A stretch of DNA of 64,000 nt, taken from positions 38,047 through 102,046 of the forward strand of contig JAQTMG010000002.1 of assembly GCA_028714455.1 (NCBI GenBank), read 5' to 3'. Both the position numbers and the translations under genes were made by a program. The stretch comes from Patescibacteria group bacterium (GTDB taxonomy: Bacteria; Patescibacteriota; Patescibacteriia; CAIXNZ01). The notes under the pieces were generated by a model, which was not told the DNA's origin, ran no database searches, and saw nothing but the letters and a program-made list of their open reading frames with translations. Below are positions 22,791 through 59,674 of the stretch, piece after piece; the stretch's first letter is position 1, and each line of letters begins with the position of its first letter.

Positions 22791-22828
22791 TTGACAAAAA
22801 TTATACTCCTGCTATACTGTATTTATAA

Positions 22829-22928
22829 CCGCAGACAATAGGTTTTCGCAAGATGTAAATCCTATCGAGGTTGTAAAATCAATAATTGATTTTTTATCGT
22901 ATTGTCTGTGGGAAACCGCAGATTTTTT
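22829..22928 (+). ncRNA. L10 ribosomal protein leader
   Basis: CCGCAGACAATAGG...TAAATCCTATCGAGG matches the L10-leader core; upstream of rplJ, after TTGACA-N16-TATACT. Confidence 0.75.
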
Positions 22929-23022
22929 TGTTTTAGATATTGGAGATTGGTGACTGGAGATTAGCGAAAGGAAAAATCCATTCCCTAATCTCTAATCCCT
23001 AATAAACTAATATCAAATAAAT

Positions 23023-27915: not shown

Positions 27916-27954
27916 CAGCTTGGCTTTTTTATTTGATTCCAAGTTAATTTTGCC

Positions 27955-28056
27955 TGTGGATAGAGTGGTTGACGCGTATATTGCGGTGGGGTATAATGTA
28001 ATCAATGAGGGGAAAAGTGGATAAATGTGGGGATAACCCCGAAGAAGTGTGGATAA
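27955..28056 (+). promoter_or_regulatory. mraZ promoter with GTGG repeats (MraZ boxes)
   Basis: TTGACG...TATAAT plus GTGG repeated at ~10-nt spacing; one TGTGGATAA at 28048-28056. Confidence 0.65.
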
Positions 28057-43322: not shown

Positions 43323-44807
43323 ATGATTAAAAGGTATGTTAACAAAAAAATCGAGGAAATCTGGGCACTTGGGAAAAAGTATGAGCTGTGGCTCATGCTT
43401 GAGCTGACTGTTATCAGGATCAGGTGCGCAATGGGTATGTTTCCAAAATATACCCATGAAAAAATTTGTGACGCCTTAGGTGAGATTGAATTTGGTGACA
43501 AGCAAATCGCCGAAATTGCAGAGATTGAGAAAAAGACAAAGCATGACCTCAATGCTTTTATCGAGTGGATAAAAGCACGTCTGCCCGTTGATCTTCGCAT
43601 GTACATACATTGGAAGATGACATCATATGATACTGAAGAAGCGCCGTTTAGCCTGATGCTGCTCGAATCCTTTGATCTTGTAATTCAGCAATGTGATCAT
43701 CTTTGCGACGTGCTTCATGAAATGGTCTATAAATACCGCTATGTGCCCATGCTTGGACGCACGCACGGTCAGGAAGCCAAACTCCAGTCCTTTGGTCTGC
43801 GCGCTCTGCGCTGGTACCTTGCGCTGGATGAAGCACGACAGCAGCTTCTTGATTCGCAGAAAGAAATTAAGCTTTCAAAGCTAAGCGGTGCGATCGGCAA
43901 CTACCAGGGGATCACTCCAGAAGAAGAGGACGCAGTGCTGCGTTCGCTCGGACTCAAGCCTTTTGTTGGCGCATCACAGATTATGCCTCGTATTTTGCAC
44001 CAACCTCTTGTCAATGCCTTGCTTATGATCGTGGGCAGTTTGACTCAGATTGCCGAAGATATCAGAATCGCGGCGCGCAGCGGACTGCCGCTCATGCAGG
44101 AATTTTTTGACAAGGGCCAGATGGGATCATCGGCCATGCCCCACAAAAAAAATACCATCACCTGTGAAAATCAAATCGGCACGTGGCGCATGGCCAAAGG
44201 CTATGGCAATATGCTAAGAGATTGCATGTTAACTTGGGAAGAGCGTGCTATTGAGCAATCCTGTGTCGAGCGTGTTGCCTGGCCAGATCTTTTCCATGTA
44301 GTTATGCAGTCTTTCAAAAACATGGCAAGCGTGCTCGAACGCCTGCAGGTTTTCCCAGATCATATGATGCTGGAAATCGACAACTCGCACGGCTGCTATG
44401 CCTCGGAAGAAGCAAAAGAGCTGCTCAAGGAATTTGGCCTGATCGATGAGGCTTACAAAATTGTGCAGCTCGCCGCGGCCAATGTCCATGAGCATGGCCA
44501 GGTTCTGAGCGATTACAGAAAGCAGCTGCAGGCCAGTTCGGTCGAAGGATATCCGGATATCGATGATGCTGTGCTGCTCGGCAAGCATTACCGAAGTGAA
44601 GAAGTCGACTCGATCAATCGAGTGATCTCGCAGGGCGATCTGCGCCCCGCAGAGGCGCTTGGGCACAGCGAAGAGACAGTCAGCGCCTGGAATAAAAAAC
44701 TCAAGGAAATCTTTGCTGACCCGAAAAAGCTGGAAAAGTGGAACGAGGTTTTTACCATCACCTTCCAGCTGCGTAACGAATCATTTATTTTTGAAACGCA
44801 CAAGTAA
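43323..44807 (+). CDS. purB: adenylosuccinate lyase
   Basis: TKHD, GRTHGQ, SGAIGNY, GSSAMPHKKN. Confidence 0.93.
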   Translation: MIKRYVNKKIEEIWALGKKYELWLMLELTVIRIRCAMGMFPKYTHEKICDALGEIEFGDKQIAEIAEIEKKTKHDLNAFIEWIKARLPVDLRMYIHWKMTSYDTEEAPFSLMLLESFDLVIQQCDHLCDVLHEMVYKYRYVPMLGRTHGQEAKLQSFGLRALRWYLALDEARQQLLDSQKEIKLSKLSGAIGNYQGITPEEEDAVLRSLGLKPFVGASQIMPRILHQPLVNALLMIVGSLTQIAEDIRIAARSGLPLMQEFFDKGQMGSSAMPHKKNTITCENQIGTWRMAKGYGNMLRDCMLTWEERAIEQSCVERVAWPDLFHVVMQSFKNMASVLERLQVFPDHMMLEIDNSHGCYASEEAKELLKEFGLIDEAYKIVQLAAANVHEHGQVLSDYRKQLQASSVEGYPDIDDAVLLGKHYRSEEVDSINRVISQGDLRPAEALGHSEETVSAWNKKLKEIFADPKKLEKWNEVFTITFQLRNESFIFETHK

Positions 44808-44851
44808 AAAATAAGCCCCCGTACCAAGTGGTAGGGGGCTTTTTAGTTTGT

Positions 44852-46627
44852 TCAGTGTTTGGCAAAACCGCGGTTGATTTTGTCGACAAAGATGACTGAA
44901 AGTCCTGTCTGGCCAAAGAGCTCGATGACTTTGGGAAGTTCTTTCCCGTCAGCCACCACCACTCCGCCTTTGCAGCCCGCGTCAATCAGCAGCTCCGTGC
45001 CTTCGCGGTTGTCATATTTGGCAATAAAGAGGCTCAAACCTCCCAGCGTAGCCAATACTCCTTTCGGTTTGCCAACTTTCTGACAATAGTATGCGTATTC
45101 GATGAATTCCCCGTCTGCATTATCAATGAAATCAGACATATCTTCCAGGTTTGGTTCCGGGCTGCTTGCGTATGGGAAAAACGCATCAGAGGCAAACATG
45201 GAACCGTCCGTGTCATGTCCTGCTCGGGTCGCTCTTTCCAGGCAGAGGCGCACGCAAGTGATTCTATCCTGTTGGCCGCAACCGAGCGCGATGAGCGCGC
45301 TGTCCTTGGCCAGGGCTACGGTGTTGGAACTCGCGTTCCAACAGATTGCCCAGGCGATGAGCAGGTTTTCGAGGTCAGCAGCTTCGACGGCTGGTCCGAC
45401 AGATGTCTCGTATGAATCCATGGTTAGGACGTAAGGATAGACTCTCTGGCGCAGGAACCCGCCACGTACCGGCTTATACATCCAGGCGTCGTTCGGCAGA
45501 GTCGGGTTGATCAAGGCCGGGTTGGAAAGTAGGCGCCTTTTTTTGGCTTTCATGAGTTCGCAGGTGTTTGCGGAAAATTCAGGCGCGATGATCAGGTCAA
45601 GACCCCAACGCTCGCGGCCGAGATTGAAATCGGCCGGCGGCTTGTGCAGGGCCTTGCCGAGTTCGTCACTGATAGGGAAGTTGGTGATGACCTCGCCGCC
45701 CATGACAGCGACTTTGTCGCCGATGAGCGCTTTGAAAATGGCTCGTGCCGGATCATGCCAGTCGATGGCCGCACCACATGGGTTGCCGTGTTTGCCGGCA
45801 ATGACGATGTAGGGCACTTTGCCGAAATTCCGGCGAAATGCCTCGACCAACACGCACATAATCTGGAGTACGCCGTTGCCGTCGGCCATGGCAATGTAGC
45901 TGGGATCACCGACCTCGACTTTGAATTTGTCCAGAGCCAGCGGATCGTCATTGCCAAAGGAAAAAAGCGTGGCCGGATTTTGGCATTTGTTCTCGCCATA
46001 GGCCAGATCGAGCGCTTTTTTGCCCACATTTCCGTCGATATCACCGTCGCTGTGATAGCGCGCCGAATCCAGGCAATATTTGGCGACTTCGCCTTCTGCC
46101 TTGGCGCGCAGGCGCTGAATGCTTTCGGGCTTGAGTTCGTTGTTGTTGGCCCGAAGTTCGTCCAGCACCCAGCCTCTGTCCGCCGGGTCGCAGATGACGA
46201 TGCGACCGCCTTTGGCAGCCGAACGCACCATGGTCGGCCCGCCGATGTCAGTCATCTCAATGACCGATTCAATGGTTGCATCTGGCTTGGCGATGGCGTT
46301 AGCCAGCGGATAAAAATCGCAGCAGACCAGATCGATGTAGGGCAGCCCGAGATTTTCCATTTCTTCCAGGTCAATATTATAACGTGCCAGCAGACTGGCA
46401 TGGAGTTCTCGCGAGAGCGTGACCACACGGTGACCCAGGATTGCTTTGCCACCGACTAATTCGGCCACATCAGTGACTTTGAGACCAGCTTCTTTTAGAA
46501 CCTTGGCCGTGCCGCCCGAAGAAAGAATTCTCCAGCCCATTATGCTTAGATCTTGGGCAAACCCCTTAATTCCGGCTTTGTTGAAAACCGAGATCAAAGC
46601 AAACTTATCTCCTTTTTCAAAAATCAT
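44852..46627 (-). CDS. purH: bifunctional AICAR transformylase / IMP cyclohydrolase (divergent)
   Basis: ALISV, SSGGTA, DIGGPTMVRSAAK, YGEN, KHGNPCG, ASDAFFP. Confidence 0.9.
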   Translation of the reverse strand: MIFEKGDKFALISVFNKAGIKGFAQDLSIMGWRILSSGGTAKVLKEAGLKVTDVAELVGGKAILGHRVVTLSRELHASLLARYNIDLEEMENLGLPYIDLVCCDFYPLANAIAKPDATIESVIEMTDIGGPTMVRSAAKGGRIVICDPADRGWVLDELRANNNELKPESIQRLRAKAEGEVAKYCLDSARYHSDGDIDGNVGKKALDLAYGENKCQNPATLFSFGNDDPLALDKFKVEVGDPSYIAMADGNGVLQIMCVLVEAFRRNFGKVPYIVIAGKHGNPCGAAIDWHDPARAIFKALIGDKVAVMGGEVITNFPISDELGKALHKPPADFNLGRERWGLDLIIAPEFSANTCELMKAKKRRLLSNPALINPTLPNDAWMYKPVRGGFLRQRVYPYVLTMDSYETSVGPAVEAADLENLLIAWAICWNASSNTVALAKDSALIALGCGQQDRITCVRLCLERATRAGHDTDGSMFASDAFFPYASSPEPNLEDMSDFIDNADGEFIEYAYYCQKVGKPKGVLATLGGLSLFIAKYDNREGTELLIDAGCKGGVVVADGKELPKVIELFGQTGLSVIFVDKINRGFAKH

Positions 46628-46831
46628 TGTCCCTCCTTTTGGTTTTGATTTAGTTTTCCAAACACTTTATATTTTAACTTTAGTTTTTAGCTAAAGATTG
46701 TAAAGAACCGATGGCTGTACCTTAAACAAAATTTTGATAAATGTCAATGTTTATATTGACAAAACACATTAGAGTTGGTAAGGTCATTTCAGATTTTGTT
46801 CTATAAAAAAAGGAAAAAAGGAGGAAAAAGA

Positions 46832-48289
46832 ATGGCAAAGATCCCAAAGGGGCTTGAGTCCCCGGAATTCGGTGGTCTAAAATTGATTTCAGACGGTAAG
46901 GTCAGGGGCACGTATGTTTTTAAGGATCAACATCCAAGCCCTTTAGTGCAATTGGCGACTGACCGCATTAGCATTTTTAATTTCATCCTCAACGCCAAAG
47001 TGCCACAAAAGGGAGAGATTCTGACGGCTATGACTATTTTCTGGCTGGAAAAGGTGCTGAAAAATTTCAAATCGCATCTTGATTTTTTTGGATCGTCTTG
47101 CGGAATTATGCTGCCTGTCGGCGCATATCGTGAGGATCCCGACTTGTGGAAAAGGGTCTTGATAATCCAAAATTTGATTCTGCCGCCGATTGAGGCCATT
47201 GTCCGCGGTTATTTGACCGGCTCTGGCTGGAAATCGTACCAAAAGTCAGGTGAATGCTACGGCCACAAGTTGCCCGAGGGACTCTGGGATGGAGCTAAAT
47301 TGCCATTTCCCATTTTTACGCCCACGGAAAAATCCGAGGACGATGCGCCAATCAGCCATGAAGAAGTGGTCAAGCGGTTTGGCGGCACCATGGAAAGAGT
47401 GTCCATGCAGGCCTACTGGCAGGCATTGGACTTCGCCATTTCGCGTGGCATTATCCTGGCCGATACTAAATTCGAGATGACCAACGATGGCATCATCGGC
47501 GATGAGGTAATCACACCTGATTCCAGCCGCTTCTGGGATTTGAAGGAGTGGCAGAAACTCGTCGCGGAAAAGAAATCGCCGACCTCATTGGACAAAGAGT
47601 TTGTCCGGAAGTGGGGCAAGAGCGTGGGCATTCATGAGCTTGATCCCAAAAGCCTGGAACACATCGCTCGGGTGGAATCAATCCTTGTACCCACGGACGT
47701 CATTGAGAACACCAGGCGCATCTATCGCTACATTTTCTGGCGCTTGACTGGCAAAAAATTGGAAGTCTTCCAGAGCGAAGTGATGAACATTCCCGACGTC
47801 AGTATGCCCAGGGTCAAGATCGCTATCGTCATCGGCAGCCAATCAGATCTTCTTCAGTGCCAACCAGGCAGGGATTTTCTGCTCGGCCAAATGCAGAGGG
47901 GAAATTGCAACGTTGATTTCAATATCATCAGCTGCCACAGAAATCCAAAAGAGCTGCTCGGCTTTGTTCAAGAAGAGTCGACACCAGATGTTGTTATCGC
48001 CGGAGCTGGCATGGCCGCGGCTTTACCCGGTATCTTAAAATCTCTGTACGTCTCTGGAGGAAAGGCTGTGCCAGTCATCGGTGTAGCCTTTGAAGGCAAG
48101 AATAATGCCGAAACATTGGCAGCCCAACTCTCAATCGAAAAGCTGCCCGGCAGTCCAGTAATTCTCGGTCCGGATGGAGTATTTACCGGAGGGGAAGGAT
48201 TTATGGCTGCTTGCAAGTACGCGCTGGAAAGTGAATTTCAGCCCGAGGCGCCGAAAGAACAGAAGAAGGCATGCCTTCACATGAAATAA
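46832..48289 (+). CDS. purC: SAICAR synthetase fused to a C-terminal PurE (AIR carboxylase/mutase) domain
   Basis: GKVR, TDRIS, ADTKFE, TPDSSRFW, DKEFVR; then GSQSD, SCHRNP, AGAGMAAALPG, PVIGV. Confidence 0.9.
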   Translation: MAKIPKGLESPEFGGLKLISDGKVRGTYVFKDQHPSPLVQLATDRISIFNFILNAKVPQKGEILTAMTIFWLEKVLKNFKSHLDFFGSSCGIMLPVGAYREDPDLWKRVLIIQNLILPPIEAIVRGYLTGSGWKSYQKSGECYGHKLPEGLWDGAKLPFPIFTPTEKSEDDAPISHEEVVKRFGGTMERVSMQAYWQALDFAISRGIILADTKFEMTNDGIIGDEVITPDSSRFWDLKEWQKLVAEKKSPTSLDKEFVRKWGKSVGIHELDPKSLEHIARVESILVPTDVIENTRRIYRYIFWRLTGKKLEVFQSEVMNIPDVSMPRVKIAIVIGSQSDLLQCQPGRDFLLGQMQRGNCNVDFNIISCHRNPKELLGFVQEESTPDVVIAGAGMAAALPGILKSLYVSGGKAVPVIGVAFEGKNNAETLAAQLSIEKLPGSPVILGPDGVFTGGEGFMAACKYALESEFQPEAPKEQKKACLHMK

Positions 48290-54749: not shown

Positions 54750-55550
54750 TCAACCGCGCGCCATTTTATAGACGTTGGCCAGCAGCATGGCGATGGTCAT
54801 GGGTCCGACGCCGCCGGGGACAGGGGAACGATAGGCGACAACCTTATCAACTTCCGGATCAACGTCACCCACGGTTTTACCAGCGATTTTATTAATGCCA
54901 ACATCGATGATTGTCGAATTTTTCTTGACCATGTCGGTTTTGATAGATTTTGGTTTGCCTACGGCGACGATGAGAATATCGGCACTTGAGCTCTGAGCTT
55001 TGAGCTCTGAGCTCGAAGCTTTGGGCGAAAGGTAAGAAACATTACATTCGCGCATTAACGGTTTAAACGGTTCAGCGAATTTTTCAGAGTTTGATAAAAT
55101 CACAACTTTTTTATTTTTCAAATTTTCACCAGTACTTTTAATCAGTTCAATAATGCCCGAAACCGTCGGTGAAATAATTTTTGACTGCGGTTGAAAGCCA
55201 TCCACGTCTTTTTCCGGCGAAATCCTGGCTATTATTTTATCAGTGTCAAAGTTTTTGGGCAGAGGCAGCTGAATCAAGATGCCGGTAATCTGCTCATCCT
55301 TATTTAAAAAATCAATGACTTCAAATATTTTTTCTTCGCCGCAATCCTCTGACAAAAAATAACTGGAAAATTCAATGCCAACCTCAAGGCAGGCTTTGGC
55401 TTTTAATTTTATATAAAGTTCAGATGAGGGATCATTGCCAATTAAAATAGAAGCCAGAGCTGGTTTTTTGTCCATTTGAATTATTTTGCCGCGAAGTTCT
55501 AATTTAATTTTTTCGGCCAGAATTTTGCCGTCAATGAGTTTGGCTGACAT
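54750..55550 (-). CDS. folD: methylenetetrahydrofolate dehydrogenase/cyclohydrolase
   Basis: LIDGK, GILIQLPLP, EKDVDG, IDVGIN, PVPGGVGPMT. Confidence 0.95.
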   Translation of the reverse strand: MSAKLIDGKILAEKIKLELRGKIIQMDKKPALASILIGNDPSSELYIKLKAKACLEVGIEFSSYFLSEDCGEEKIFEVIDFLNKDEQITGILIQLPLPKNFDTDKIIARISPEKDVDGFQPQSKIISPTVSGIIELIKSTGENLKNKKVVILSNSEKFAEPFKPLMRECNVSYLSPKASSSELKAQSSSADILIVAVGKPKSIKTDMVKKNSTIIDVGINKIAGKTVGDVDPEVDKVVAYRSPVPGGVGPMTIAMLLANVYKMARG

Positions 55551-55612
55551 AGGGCTTTTGGCTTTGGGCTCTGGGCAAAAAGCTCTATGCTCTATGCTCG
55601 TGGCCCATGGCA

Positions 55613-56857
55613 TTAATATTTTAAATCCTTATAGATAGGGAATTGGTGCGTGAGTTGTGCCACCTGTTTTTTGGCTTTTTCCTGAATTATCGCATCTTCA
55701 TGATTTTTTAGAAGTTCAGAGATTAAATTTCCGATTATCTTCATCTCTTTTTCTTTCATGCCTCGCGTGGTCAGAGCTGGCGTGCCCAGGCGCAGACCAG
55801 AGGGGTCGGCGGCTTTTCTCGCGTCAAAAGGAATCAGATTTTTATTAGTGTAAATGCCGACTCGAGCCAGAATTTCCTCGGCCTGCTGTCCGCCAAGACG
55901 CAGATTTGTCAGTTTTAGCAAAATCAGATGCGTGTCTGTGCCGCCCGAAACAAGTTCAAAGCCGTTATTAATCAGAGTGGCGGCCAAAACACTGGCATTT
56001 TTTATGACCTGCTGTTGATATTTTTTAAAGGTCGGTTTCATGGCCTCCGCAAAACAAACGGCTTTAGCCGCGATAATATTTTCCAGCGGACCGCCCTGAA
56101 TACCAGGAAAAACGGCCTTGTCTATTTTTTCAGCCAAATATTTTTTGCACAAGATAAATCCGCCGCGCGGACCGGCCAGCGTTTTGTGCGTGGTGCTGGT
56201 AATAACATCGGCGTAGGGAATAGGATCGGGATGAAGTTTGGCCACGACCAGTCCGGCAAAATGCGCCATGTCAACCATTAATTTGGCGTTGACCGCGTCA
56301 GCTATTTTTTTAAATTTTTCAAAATCAATCTGGCGCGCGTAAGCGGAACCGCCGGCGATGATCAGCTTTGGCGCCTCGCGCTGGGCGATTTCCAAAACAT
56401 TACCATAGTTTATTTCTTCGGTGTTTTTATCAACGCCATAAAAAGCAACTTTGTAGATTTTGCCTGAAAAATTTAAATGCGAGCCGTGGGAAAGATGGCC
56501 GCCTTGCGCCAGATTCATGGCCAAAATCTTGTCGCCTGGATTTAAGAGCGCCAGATAAACCGCCATATTGGCCTGACTGCCAGAATGCGGCTGAACATTG
56601 ACATGCTCGGCGCCAAAAAGTTTTTTGGCTCGTTCGATAGCCAAACTCTCGGCTTCATCAATGAATTGATTGCCGCTGTAATATCTTTTGCCGATTTGTC
56701 CCTCTGAATATTTATTCATCAAAACACTGCCGCTCGCTTCTAAAACCGCTTGCGAGGCGTAGTTTTCAGAGGCGATCATTTCCAGCCCGTCTTTTTGGCG
56801 AGCCAGCTCTTTTTGAACCGCGGCGTAAACCTGTTTGTCTGTTTTTAGATATTTCAT
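55613..56857 (-). CDS. glyA: serine hydroxymethyltransferase
   Basis: [34 protein letters not shown]. Confidence 0.97.
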
Positions 56858-56888
56858 AATTTTTAAAATTATATCCTAAAATTAGGCA

Positions 56889-57220
56889 AAATAAAAGGGG
56901 CATCACGATGATGCCCCGGGAGACGAGGAACCCTATATTGATCAACCAGCTTAGCTGGCTTATTTCGGGGAGGGTGTGGTCGCACCCTCCTCACCAAAAA
57001 GAAGAACGAGTACAGGGAGGTGAACGAACCTATTTTAACCAGCTTTGGCTGGCTTGTTTTCGGGAGGGTGGTTTGGTTCACCCTCCCGCCTTTGAAGAGA
57101 GACTGAAAAAGACCGAACTTATTCGAACCTGCATTCGCAGGATTGCTTTCGGCCCGAACTGGCGTTCGGGCCAGATACCCGAGAGGCAAGAGCTAACCAA
57201 GTCACCACCCAGGACCGGAT
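56889..57220 (-). ncRNA. putative ~330-nt structured RNA with three double-hairpin modules, family unidentified
   Basis: TGCTATAAT extended -10 at 57235-57227; six internal hairpins; terminator GGGGCATCA-TGATGCCCC plus U-tract at 56917-56889. Confidence 0.7.
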
Positions 57221-57240
57221 AGCTTTATTATAGCAAAAGT

Positions 57241-57249
57241 TTATCCACA
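57241..57249 (+). promoter_or_regulatory. consensus DnaA box
   Basis: TTATCCACA just upstream of the putative ncRNA -10 box. Confidence 0.45.
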
Positions 57250-57250
57250 G

Positions 57251-58825
57251 CTACAAGCTTTTCATCATGTATGTATTTTGTCGGCGATAACCAAGCTTCT
57301 TGTAATATTGTCGCACACCAATGCCAGAAATGACAGCGATTTTTTTAAAGCCTGCTTTTTTGGCGATTTTTTCCGCAGCAGCGATCAATTGGCGTCCTAA
57401 ACCAGCGTGTTGAACCGCGTGCCCTTTGCTTTTTAGCGGAATCAGTTCGCCATAGGTGTGAACTTCACGAATTAAGGCAACGTCTTTTAATTCGGGCAAC
57501 GCGTCTGATAATTTTTCATCAACATTTTTTGGCAATCTTAAACGCAGGAAAGCGAATAATGTTTTTTTATCTTTTGATTCGCAGCTCAAAAAATATTCCA
57601 GACCCTCGGAAGCTTTGTACTTCTTAATTCTATATTCTATATTCTTTATTCTAAATTCTTTATTTCTCGCTTCGCGGCAACGAATGCATTGGCAGAATTC
57701 GCCTGTTTTTTGAAAGCGTTCGTTAATGAGCTGGCGCAGATTGGAAATTTTATTGCCAGCCACAATGCTCTCGGAAGGAATGTCGCGGATAATTCTGCTT
57801 AGGCGCACATAAGGCGGAATTATTTTTTTTATCTTAACTAAAAGATTTAAAAGTTGTTTGTCAGAATAAGGCTTGAATTTGCCGGCTTTGTACCATTTAT
57901 AAATCTTGGCAGTATCAGTCACGACGCAAGGATAAATTTTTAACATGTCTGGCTGATAATTTTGGTCACGAAATAATTGATTGAACATTTTGAAATCTTT
58001 GGCAGGAGTTGAAGTCGGCAAATTTGGCATCATGTGGTAAGAAATTTTAAAACCCGCATCCTTGAGTAATTTTGTCGCCTCAATTATTTCTTTGGTTAAA
58101 TGACCGCGTTTTGTTAATTTTAATATTTTATCGTCAATGGTTTGCACACCCAATTCCACTCTGGTGGCGCCCAGTTCGCGCATTCTTTTGATTTCGGGAA
58201 TGGAAATATAATCAGGCCGAGTTTCCAGAGTTATGCCAATAACTCGAAACTTCGCCGTTTCATTCAATTTTTGGGCTGAAGCTAGGTTTTTGGCAGTTCT
58301 CTGGTTAAAAGCCTCAAAACATCTCTTAATAAACCAAGTCTGATATTTATGCGGCAAATAAGTCCAGGTGCCGCCCATGATAATTAATTCGCATTTGTCA
58401 GTATCATGCCCGGTCATGGCTAAAGCTCTTAAACGCATTTGCACCTGCTTGAAAGGATCGAATCGGCATAAAATTGCCCTCATAACTGCTGGTTCATTAG
58501 ATAAATAAGATTTAGGCATTTTCTTTTCATTGGGGCAAAAAACACATTCGCCCGGGCACTTGTAGGGTTTGGTTAAAATGGCCACGACTGCCACGCCAGA
58601 AAGTGTGCGTATTTCGCGCTTTTTAAGCAGCTTTTTCAGGGCTAAATGCCCATTTCCAGATTTGACTAATTTGTGATAAGCTGAAAGGAGTTTGATGCGC
58701 TTTGGCGAGGGGATTTTAAAGCCACTTGCTAGTTTTTTAACTAAATAATTTAACTCCCGCTGGGTGGTGGGTCTGGATTTGATTAACTGCTGAACAATAA
58801 TTTTTTCTATATTGGATTGTTTCAT
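57251..58825 (-). CDS. elp3: Elp3-family radical SAM / acetyltransferase (tRNA U34 carboxymethylation)
   Basis: RTLSGVAVV, CPGECVFCP, ETRPD, ELGVQT, LKIYP, CQCIRCRE, QHAGLG, VISGIGVRQYY. Confidence 0.93.
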   Translation of the reverse strand: MKQSNIEKIIVQQLIKSRPTTQRELNYLVKKLASGFKIPSPKRIKLLSAYHKLVKSGNGHLALKKLLKKREIRTLSGVAVVAILTKPYKCPGECVFCPNEKKMPKSYLSNEPAVMRAILCRFDPFKQVQMRLRALAMTGHDTDKCELIIMGGTWTYLPHKYQTWFIKRCFEAFNQRTAKNLASAQKLNETAKFRVIGITLETRPDYISIPEIKRMRELGATRVELGVQTIDDKILKLTKRGHLTKEIIEATKLLKDAGFKISYHMMPNLPTSTPAKDFKMFNQLFRDQNYQPDMLKIYPCVVTDTAKIYKWYKAGKFKPYSDKQLLNLLVKIKKIIPPYVRLSRIIRDIPSESIVAGNKISNLRQLINERFQKTGEFCQCIRCREARNKEFRIKNIEYRIKKYKASEGLEYFLSCESKDKKTLFAFLRLRLPKNVDEKLSDALPELKDVALIREVHTYGELIPLKSKGHAVQHAGLGRQLIAAAEKIAKKAGFKKIAVISGIGVRQYYKKLGYRRQNTYMMKSL

Positions 58826-58832
58826 AATTAAG

Positions 58833-58968
58833 ATGAGCTATTTTAGAAGAGCTAAAAGAGCTAAATGTCGAGAAGAGCTATAGGTTTAAAGGTTAATAGG
58901 CAAGAATAAACCTTTTAGCCTATCACCATATAGTTCCTATAATCCTATAGCTCCTGTAGCTCCTATAA
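58833..58968. repeat. inverted degenerate 9-mer array
   Basis: AAGAGCTA repeats / TAGTTCCTA and TAGCTCCT repeats. Confidence 0.7.
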
Positions 58969-58972
58969 ACGC

Positions 58973-59674
58973 ATGAAGGAAGAAATCGCGTTAAAAATTT
59001 TAGCCAAGAACAAGGAGCTTTATAATGATATCGCTTCTGATTTTTCGCGCACGCGCGGCGCGGTCTGGCCTGAATTTGAGTATTTTAAAGGATATATCGC
59101 TAACGGTCAAGATATTCTGGATCTGGGTTGCGGCAATGGCCGGCTCTTGGAACTGCTTAAAGAATATCAGATTAATTATTTGGGTATTGATTACAGTCAG
59201 AAACTAATCGGTCAGGCCCAGCGTCTCTGGCCCGATAGCAAATTTTTAGTGGCGGATATTTTGAATCTGCCGCCGCTTAAGAAAAAGTTTGATTTGATTT
59301 TTTGCGTGGCGGTCTTGCACCACATTCCCTCAAAAAAATTTCGTTTGCAGGTTTTGAAAGAGATGAAAAATCTTTTGAAACCGGGCGGGAAATTGCTCAT
59401 GATCAATTGGAATTTATGGCAGACGCGCTACCTGAAATATATCATCAAATACACGCTTTTAAAAATGACTGACCCGCTCAATGAGGCAAACGGAATTAAA
59501 CACATGAATTTGGATTTGGGCGATGTTTTCATTCCCTGGCAGAAAAAACATTTGCGCTATGTCCATGCTTTTACCGAAATGGAAGTTGAATCGTTATTGA
59601 AAAAATCTGGGTTTGAAATTATAAAAAATGTTTCCAATAACAGAAACATAATTACGGTGGCGAAAGTAAAATAG
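58973..59674 (+). CDS. Trm9/ALKBH8-like class I SAM methyltransferase
   Basis: YNDIASDFSRTR..WP, DLGCGNG, AVLHH, DVFIPW, RYVHAF follow the Trm9 motif order. Confidence 0.75.
   Translation: MKEEIALKILAKNKELYNDIASDFSRTRGAVWPEFEYFKGYIANGQDILDLGCGNGRLLELLKEYQINYLGIDYSQKLIGQAQRLWPDSKFLVADILNLPPLKKKFDLIFCVAVLHHIPSKKFRLQVLKEMKNLLKPGGKLLMINWNLWQTRYLKYIIKYTLLKMTDPLNEANGIKHMNLDLGDVFIPWQKKHLRYVHAFTEMEVESLLKKSGFEIIKNVSNNRNIITVAKVK

Follow-up and report, generated by a model that had tools for sequence, protein, structure and literature searches.

A well-supported reading of the sequence is that the gap between elp3 and glyA in the source genome (G000; 893 kb, rated 100% complete) holds an uncatalogued, modular RNA gene that is restricted to one family of the ultra-small Patescibacteria. 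Its product is very probably an independent non-coding RNA. Within the window, that is the whole 64,000-nucleotide stretch of DNA that was analysed, the unit comprises 331 nt on the minus strand, with three two-hairpin modules between a promoter and a terminator (Table 1). The sequence-level basis comprises the unit's own promoter and terminator, one to four modules whose shape is kept, and pyrimidine linkers enriched in CUCCUU. The original prediction of a novel, independent, and multivalent non-coding RNA stands up well, given that no Rfam family matches, that the stems covary, that the module number varies, and that the motif complementary to the Shine-Dalgarno (SD) sequence, the anti-SD motif, is enriched.

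Table 1. Features of the RNA locus and its neighbours (window coordinates unless a locus is named).
Feature	Position	Strand	Remarks
elp3, tRNA U34 radical SAM/GNAT enzyme, upstream neighbour	57251..58825	-	TIGR01211, 582.6 bits (cut-off 350)
DnaA-box-like 9-mer TGTGGATAA in promoter spacer	57241..57249	-	position confirmed in the sequence
Extended -10 promoter TG-N-TATAAT	57227..57235	-	predicted start near 57221-57220
5' domain with GGUGGUG, CUCUUG, and a small hairpin	57173..57221	-	conserved within the genus only (loci L009, L010, L011)
Module 1	57115..57172	-	Pa 57172-57151, A-rich linker, Pb 57141-57128, AUA..UUC tail
Pyrimidine-rich linker 1	57089..57114	-	
Module 2	57026..57088	-	Pa 57088-57061, Pb 57052-57039, tail
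Pyrimidine-rich linker 2	56991..57025	-	anti-SD-like CACCUCCC at 57022-57015
Module 3	56928..56990	-	Pa 56990-56969, Pb 56958-56946, tail
Intrinsic terminator, 9-bp stem and T run	56887..56917	-	placed at 56917-56897
Separate -10 box TATAAT for glyA-folD	56868..56873	-	same distance in 3/3 genus members
glyA, downstream neighbour outside the RNA	55613..56857	-	ATG at 56857; NF000586, 604.5 bits; no upstream SD
folD-like gene	54750..55613	-	FolD models E 1e-69 yet below cut-offs; both Pfam domains
Second small RNA-like unit	L021 1215-1345	+	
Second small RNA-like unit	L029 3075-2950	-	
Second small RNA-like unit	L016 3025-2945	-	
Second small RNA-like unit	L022 3060-2980	-	

Every element named in advance, i.e. 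the promoter, the DnaA box, the three modules, UCACCUCCCU at 57023-57014, the terminator, and the second TATAAT, has been confirmed on the minus strand at the position originally given. For the fold of the region, -145.7 kcal/mol was calculated (z = -5.88), a value that none of 100 shuffles equalled, and a hand-written descriptor of the module matches exactly three times on both strands of the genome, always in the elp3-glyA gap. Linker 2 could pair alternatively with the 5' strand of the first hairpin (Pa) of module 2. The stem proposed to close the 5' and 3' ends of the RNA fared less well: it is weak across homologues (cognate -16.1 versus permuted -14.6 kcal/mol, p = 0.04), and in the window copy the 3' arm of this stem and the terminator share the terminator's first Gs. 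The elp3 gene itself is arranged head to head with a class I methyltransferase gene (window 57251-59674).

While elp3 was found in all 14 genomes of the family, the homologue search that had been suggested as a check located a promoter-to-terminator unit of about 200-470 nt behind it in 13 of them. In the remaining genome (G013) elp3 runs directly into the glyA promoter, without the RNA. Together the family contains 29 modules, between one and four per genome with five genomes having a single one, and the modules are confined to one locus in each genome. All 13 units end in a GC-rich hairpin followed by a T-rich run, as read by eye, and -10-like hexamers are found at the same place; the starts were chosen from these boxes and are therefore not independent of them. 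Outside the family, none of 28 elp3 loci contains a module (best score 19.6 bits), and a second scan of the non-family elp3 loci gave none either, with a gap cut-off that hid the modules at their own loci and left G004 as the sole positive control. At six of the 28 loci glyA starts within ~25-160 nt. Because elp3 and glyA are thus adjacent outside the family too and none of the 28 loci has a module, the RNA seems to have been inserted into an older gap, and it looks like it arose there in the ancestor of one Patescibacteria family. A class-wide search with the module model (150 genomes, best 35 candidates each) gave no further tandem array among the 15 off-locus matches inspected, and its sensitivity is low, since it missed the known modules of G004. 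Used as a DNA query, the RNA of G012 has no homologue in G013 or in the sister family. A metagenome scan for glyA returned 80 distant loci with 52-62% identity, and a viral pattern scan returned 29 loci, of which the three best alignments lack a proper first hairpin. The elp3-glyA gap of the sister-family genome G016 (L172 1900-2170) is occupied by another kind of multi-hairpin unit, which has a terminator and a TTGACA promoter. There the module model reaches 23.7 bits on the strand opposite to the promoter and terminator of that unit; this gap may contain a distant homologue.

All modules follow one plan: the first hairpin, Pa, is variable and 7-14 bp long, 6-12 A-rich nucleotides link it to the second hairpin, Pb, and a tail follows. 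Conserved are the C-Y-R-G base of the Pb helix, the A-rich flanks, and AUA and UUC. The C-Y-R-G base is present in 22 of the 29 modules, this and the related counts being given as run with three rows (G011_1, G004_1, and G004_3) off register by one base; by eye, the helix base of G004_3 reads CTAG/CTAG. AUA occurs in 25 and UUC in 18 of 27 tails (13.4 and 9.2 expected, respectively; two of the 29 module rows were left out). Of the three hairpin-GAAA-hairpin modules originally described, the modules stand as described, but the GAAA is not conserved, being found within 10 nt before the second hairpin in only 12 of the 29 homologous modules. The covariation analysis that had been proposed alongside the homologue search revealed covarying stems. 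In the model-fitted alignment, which leans towards the model and includes four antisense fragments, each of the 14 pairs shows changes on both sides and 89.8% of the cells pair, a result not matched by any of 500 shuffles, and slid-register controls reach 51% pairing at most. Although the fitted alignment leans in this way, an unfitted alignment of five modules agrees with it (78.3% pairing, five of 14 pairs changed on both sides, 0 of 500 shuffles). RNAalifold found only three pairs on a plain MAFFT alignment because the stems are out of register there. The module model, which was built from five modules of two genomes, matches the sense strand in 18 of the 25 module loci, the five training modules counted in. 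Within one genome, the copies differ in their stem sequences yet still pair.

Permutation tests of further pairings left out four of 22 rows (three without a normal downstream linker and one near-duplicate) and used a module table with rows G010_2 and G010_3 off by one base. In these tests an alternative pairing between linker and Pa obtained p = 0.036, and pairing of GAA with UUC across Pb (p = 0.075) and of Pa with the upstream tract (p = 0.89) was not supported. In four genomes and genera (L021 1065-1130, L029 3252-3178, L032 1346-1392, and L013 3166-3072) the tip of Pb carries a conserved junction, NGG-CGGWAAA ... GCG/CGC ... GAA-CCN, and the junction of G012 contains an inserted hairpin with the loop CCUCCUUUC. 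As a search pattern, this junction gave noise in 401 genomes of the class and, in a wider contig set, 120 loci among the matches listed, of which three passed a second filter and none was motif-like. The 5' end of the G004 RNA has a near-exact tandem duplication of ~76 nt (L163 1470-1320). A leader or the mRNA of a small protein was ruled out because the 13 homologues have no conserved reading frame, their longest ORFs being without similarity (best local score 36).

In type III antitoxin, CRISPR, and TIGR arrays, the repeats are conserved in sequence and an effector or toxin gene lies next to them. With a mean column identity of 43% between the modules, and with elp3 and glyA as neighbours, an array of this kind was ruled out. 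The Patescibacteriota array cluster in the accessible part of bioRxiv 10.64898/2026.10.21.760802 has a period of 7 and is different from the RNA described here. It is decidedly unlikely that the transcript is a precursor in which the modules act as processing signals and which is cut into small RNAs of ~85-140 nt, each with a pyrimidine guide. The Pb starts are regularly spaced within the genus (86-100 nt, one 141), AU-rich single strands adjoin the hairpins, and motifs of RNase III and PNPase are present in the source genome, all of which would suit such processing. However, there is no linked effector or toxin gene next to elp3 and glyA, five genomes encode one module, and the linkers have no exact match in the genome longer than 13 nt.

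The 9-mer in the promoter spacer corresponds to the DnaA box consensus. Perfect DnaA boxes number only 14 in the genome, and nine of the 13 homologues have a DnaA-type box no more than 75 nt from the assumed start, four in one orientation and five in the other. That the box adjoins the RNA could be taken to mean that the locus is not a functional RNA at all, but piled-up mobile hairpin DNA of the REP type or a site that acts as DNA, e.g. an origin. This explanation is extremely improbable, given that the modules are found at one locus per genome, that intragenomic copies have diverged in their stems with pairing kept, and that promoter, terminator, and strand asymmetry are maintained. A replication origin was rejected because there is a single box, because the GC skew does not turn here, and because dnaA is on another contig. 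Elsewhere in the window, four DnaA-box-like or GTGG repeats directly precede mraZ (27954-28055), and these are most likely MraZ operator repeats.

Searches with Rfam 15 yielded a single match in the 64-kb window, an ordinary ribosomal protein L10 leader (22811-22939, 52.3 bits). The RNA region itself has five chance-level matches of 14-18 bits, far below the cut-off, and 17 homologous or neighbouring loci gave none above it. The families that had been singled out for comparison (6S, glycine, ZMP/ZTP, THF, RNase P, and tmRNA) do not match the RNA. RNase P RNA and tmRNA are encoded elsewhere in the genome, on contigs C5 and C10. 6S RNA (RF00013) was not found in the source genome, and the RNA folds into multiple hairpins and not into a long rod with a central bubble. 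Searches of the same genome did not find small SRP RNA (RF00169), nor Ffh, Hfq, and Rho, for which the controls gave matches, nor CsrA (PF02599), which was found in three of 14 controls. The genome size and the negative searches for Ffh, Hfq, and Rho point to Patescibacteria. Eight of 13 family relatives gave a weak match, under the Pfam cut-off, to a divergent gene of the bS21 type (L345-L347); none was found in the three genus members, including G000.

A tandem riboswitch for one-carbon metabolism, the other possibility raised originally, is not supported: the RNA persists without an adjacent glyA, and glyA has its own promoter. In G006 (95% complete) a convergent gene comes after the RNA, and glyA was not found; what lies between the RNA and glyA is, in G004, further genes plus a second small RNA-like unit and, in both G005 and G009, a second promoter-to-terminator unit; in G011 palindromic repeats fill the contig from the RNA to its end, and glyA was located on a different contig. 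The RNA is thus separated from glyA in at least four genomes. The TATAAT that had been assigned to glyA is present, and a glyA promoter is kept with or without the RNA: a TTGACA-spacer-TAnnnT promoter precedes glyA in eight of 13 family loci, including that of G013, although within the genus the glyA promoter consists of a -10 box only. Based on the sequences, the RNA is probably not a riboswitch of glyA, and we regard a tandem riboswitch or attenuator for glyA-folD of the glycine, ZTP, or THF type as very unlikely. It would be in line with the position of the RNA upstream of glyA, its tandem arrangement and terminal terminator, the -10-only promoter within the genus, the alternative pairing of linker and Pa, and a 5' segment that, by eye, could pair with the 5' arm of the terminator in the three genus members. 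In addition, CCGAAAGCAA resembles part of the glycine aptamer, a short CCGAA-AGCAA similarity. However, none of the five Rfam matches at E <= 10 is to a riboswitch model, the aptamer consensus and the invariant ligand cores of the glycine, ZTP, and THF riboswitches are absent, the glyA promoter lies behind the terminator, and neither the gene context nor a constant 5'-leader position is kept.

The second small RNA-like unit before glyA was observed in G005, G009, G004, and G011. It has a CCAAG/CUUGG stem and its own promoter and terminator but no Rfam match, and a similar segment is found inside the RNA of G006. The repeats behind the RNA of G011 are two near-identical, REP-like long palindromes (L162 200-1), and a similar sequence precedes the small RNA of G004.

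The anti-SD-like stretch noticed in one linker of the window copy is part of a wider signal. CUCCUU, the complement of the AAGGAG(G) SD sequence, is enriched across homologues, being present in nine of the 13 RNAs and in seven of eight genera, although CUCCU is absent from the window copy and from G004. Dinucleotide shuffles gave 2.0 such RNAs on average and seven at most in 300 trials. If C and U are shuffled within the pyrimidine runs, 2.8 RNAs are expected, and p = 0.0005 becomes ~0.03 once the 64 hexamers are allowed for, the genomes being kin and not independent. Among the 64 pyrimidine hexamers CUCCUU ranks joint first by RNAs and first by genera. Its position varies between the 5' end, a linker, and the inside of a loop, which fits independent retention, though kin genomes do not count as independent, and it is often predicted to be unpaired. 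The best seed of the window copy, CACCUCCC, is predicted to be only ~0.44 unpaired. In 10 of 11 loci the 16S tail of the family is AUCUCCUUUCU, and CCUCCU, found in seven of 13 RNAs, is a better fit to the SD of mRNAs than to that tail. Tsurumaki et al. reported, in the part of their article accessible to us, a canonical anti-SD in only 48% of the Parcubacteria (PMC9297842). The 16S 3' ends analysed here (L377-L387) have GGACCAUCUCCUUUCU in 10 of 11 cases, and one of the two G001 loci, possibly on a foreign contig, is canonical.

Only a minority of the genes could be recognised by such a motif. In the source genome 135 of 810 roughly called ORFs (~17%) are SD-led with the consensus AAAGGAGG, and the remainder have AU-rich starts. 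In the window (145-63298), ribosomal, glycolytic, cell-wall, and replication genes as well as glyA, folD, and elp3 are SD-free, and the SD-led genes, for the most part accessory ones, include purB, purH, a purC-purE fusion, and many orphans; PhoH and a ClpB-like gene also belong to the SD-led class. A Pfam family is missing in nine of 16 SD-led versus 11 of 51 SD-free window genes (Fisher p = 0.013). The genomes of the family have 89-206 AAGGAGG-N4-10-ATG sites versus 18-38 in three less complete sister-family genomes, and the highest number, 206, belongs to G013, which has no RNA at the elp3-glyA locus. All three purine genes (window 43323-48286) are SD-led; de novo purine genes are unusual for this group. 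Linker 2 of the window copy forms a predicted duplex of -21.1 kcal/mol with the purH start versus -3.9 kcal/mol with that of glyA. Its best start-region duplex (-38.4) beat all 12 shuffles; the best duplexes formed by the 5' domain, by linker 1, and by linker 3 stay inside the range of the 12 shuffles. No specific mRNA stands out from the shuffles as a target among the start regions of the genome, so that guide-like targeting of single mRNAs is unsupported. Upstream tracts reaching -6.5 or better were found for 15 of 28 modules versus 11.1 after shuffling within runs (p = 0.058), and the means differ with p = 0.004.

Taken as a whole, the mechanism that we tentatively favour, about which we are somewhat more doubtful than confident, is that of an Hfq-independent, multivalent anti-SD RNA, similar to the cuckoo RNAs or RsaE, whose modules bind a putative protein. 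The RNA would be transcribed independently and act in trans. Its linkers would be seeds that pair with AAAGGAGG in the SD-led mRNAs, a minority, and block loading of the 30S subunit, and SD-free core genes, e.g. glyA and folD, would escape this pairing. The modules could provide repeated docking sites for the putative protein, a chaperone or a nuclease, and hold the seeds single-stranded, and several seed-plus-module units might generate avidity in a cell without Hfq. DnaA, finally, might tie the RNA level to the replication state. However, the module is the strongest conserved feature, and it is not explained by base pairing. The main rival, possible though doubtful, is a pure protein sponge or scaffold with a CsrB-like logic, in which each module binds one copy of a putative protein and the linkers are mere unstructured spacers. 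Consistent with this, the module copy number varies from one to four, the stems vary freely around a fixed Pb base and flanks, four genomes share the additional junction at the Pb tip, and the window copy lacks CUCCU. Against it, the enrichment of CUCCUU survives shuffles that preserve the pyrimidine runs, and searches of G000 gave neither CsrA nor Hfq, Rho, or Ffh, the partners to be expected first. CsrB, CsrC, and RsmZ likewise have repeated, protein-binding-like units in variable copy number, but GGA loops are missing here.

The favoured anti-SD mechanism has its closest parallels in two known groups of RNAs, both compared here from the accessible parts of the articles. The cuckoo family (RSs0680/CcsR, ar14, and NfeR1) of the Alphaproteobacteria has a one-hairpin module with CCUCCUCCC in every hairpin loop (PMC4615179). 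It shares with the RNA adjacent modules in variable number (2-4 in cuckoo RNAs), an anti-SD motif, and stems of low conservation with many compensatory changes (PMC4615179). In contrast, the module here has two hairpins, its loops are not C-rich and do not each contain CCUCCUCCC, the letters that are fixed belong to a helix base and to A-rich flanks, and linkers hold the anti-SD motif, which some units and copies lack; the variable module number with covarying, variable stems is found in both. RsaE/RoxS and the other Rsa UCCC RNAs of the Firmicutes are Hfq-independent as well, with unpaired C-rich seeds that can pair with the SD and with their own promoter and terminator (PMC2790875). The candidate seed here is CUCCUU, present in nine of 13 RNAs, predicted to be unpaired in several, and absent from the window copy. 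A repeated two-hairpin module is not described for RsaE in the accessible part of that article, and RsaE lowers FolD (PMC2790875), whereas folD and glyA have no SD here; most mRNAs of the Firmicutes carry an SD, compared to ~17% here. Lacking both the loop motif and an Rfam score, the RNA belongs neither to the cuckoo nor to the RsaE family. No description of it was found in the article texts covered, mostly from non-subscription journals.

A broader proposal is that the multivalent anti-SD RNA is a class-wide translational silencer. Under control of DnaA, it would switch off the SD-led class as a whole, including incoming phage and other foreign mRNAs, and spare housekeeping genes, and its modules would load a new RNA chaperone or nuclease. 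Since the core genes are SD-free and the accessory, lineage-specific genes are SD-led, one anti-SD RNA could silence the entire SD-led class. We consider this proposal rather unlikely. The RNA is found in a narrow family (13 genomes), which limits its general importance. On the other hand, almost nothing was found on RNA-based regulation in Patescibacteria in the mostly non-subscription journals covered, and neither 6S RNA nor SRP, Hfq, CsrA, or Rho was found in the source genome. A module family that is expandable and conserved in shape points to a putative new RNA-binding partner, and with core genes SD-free and accessory genes SD-led, control of a whole mRNA class by one anti-SD RNA is simple to test.
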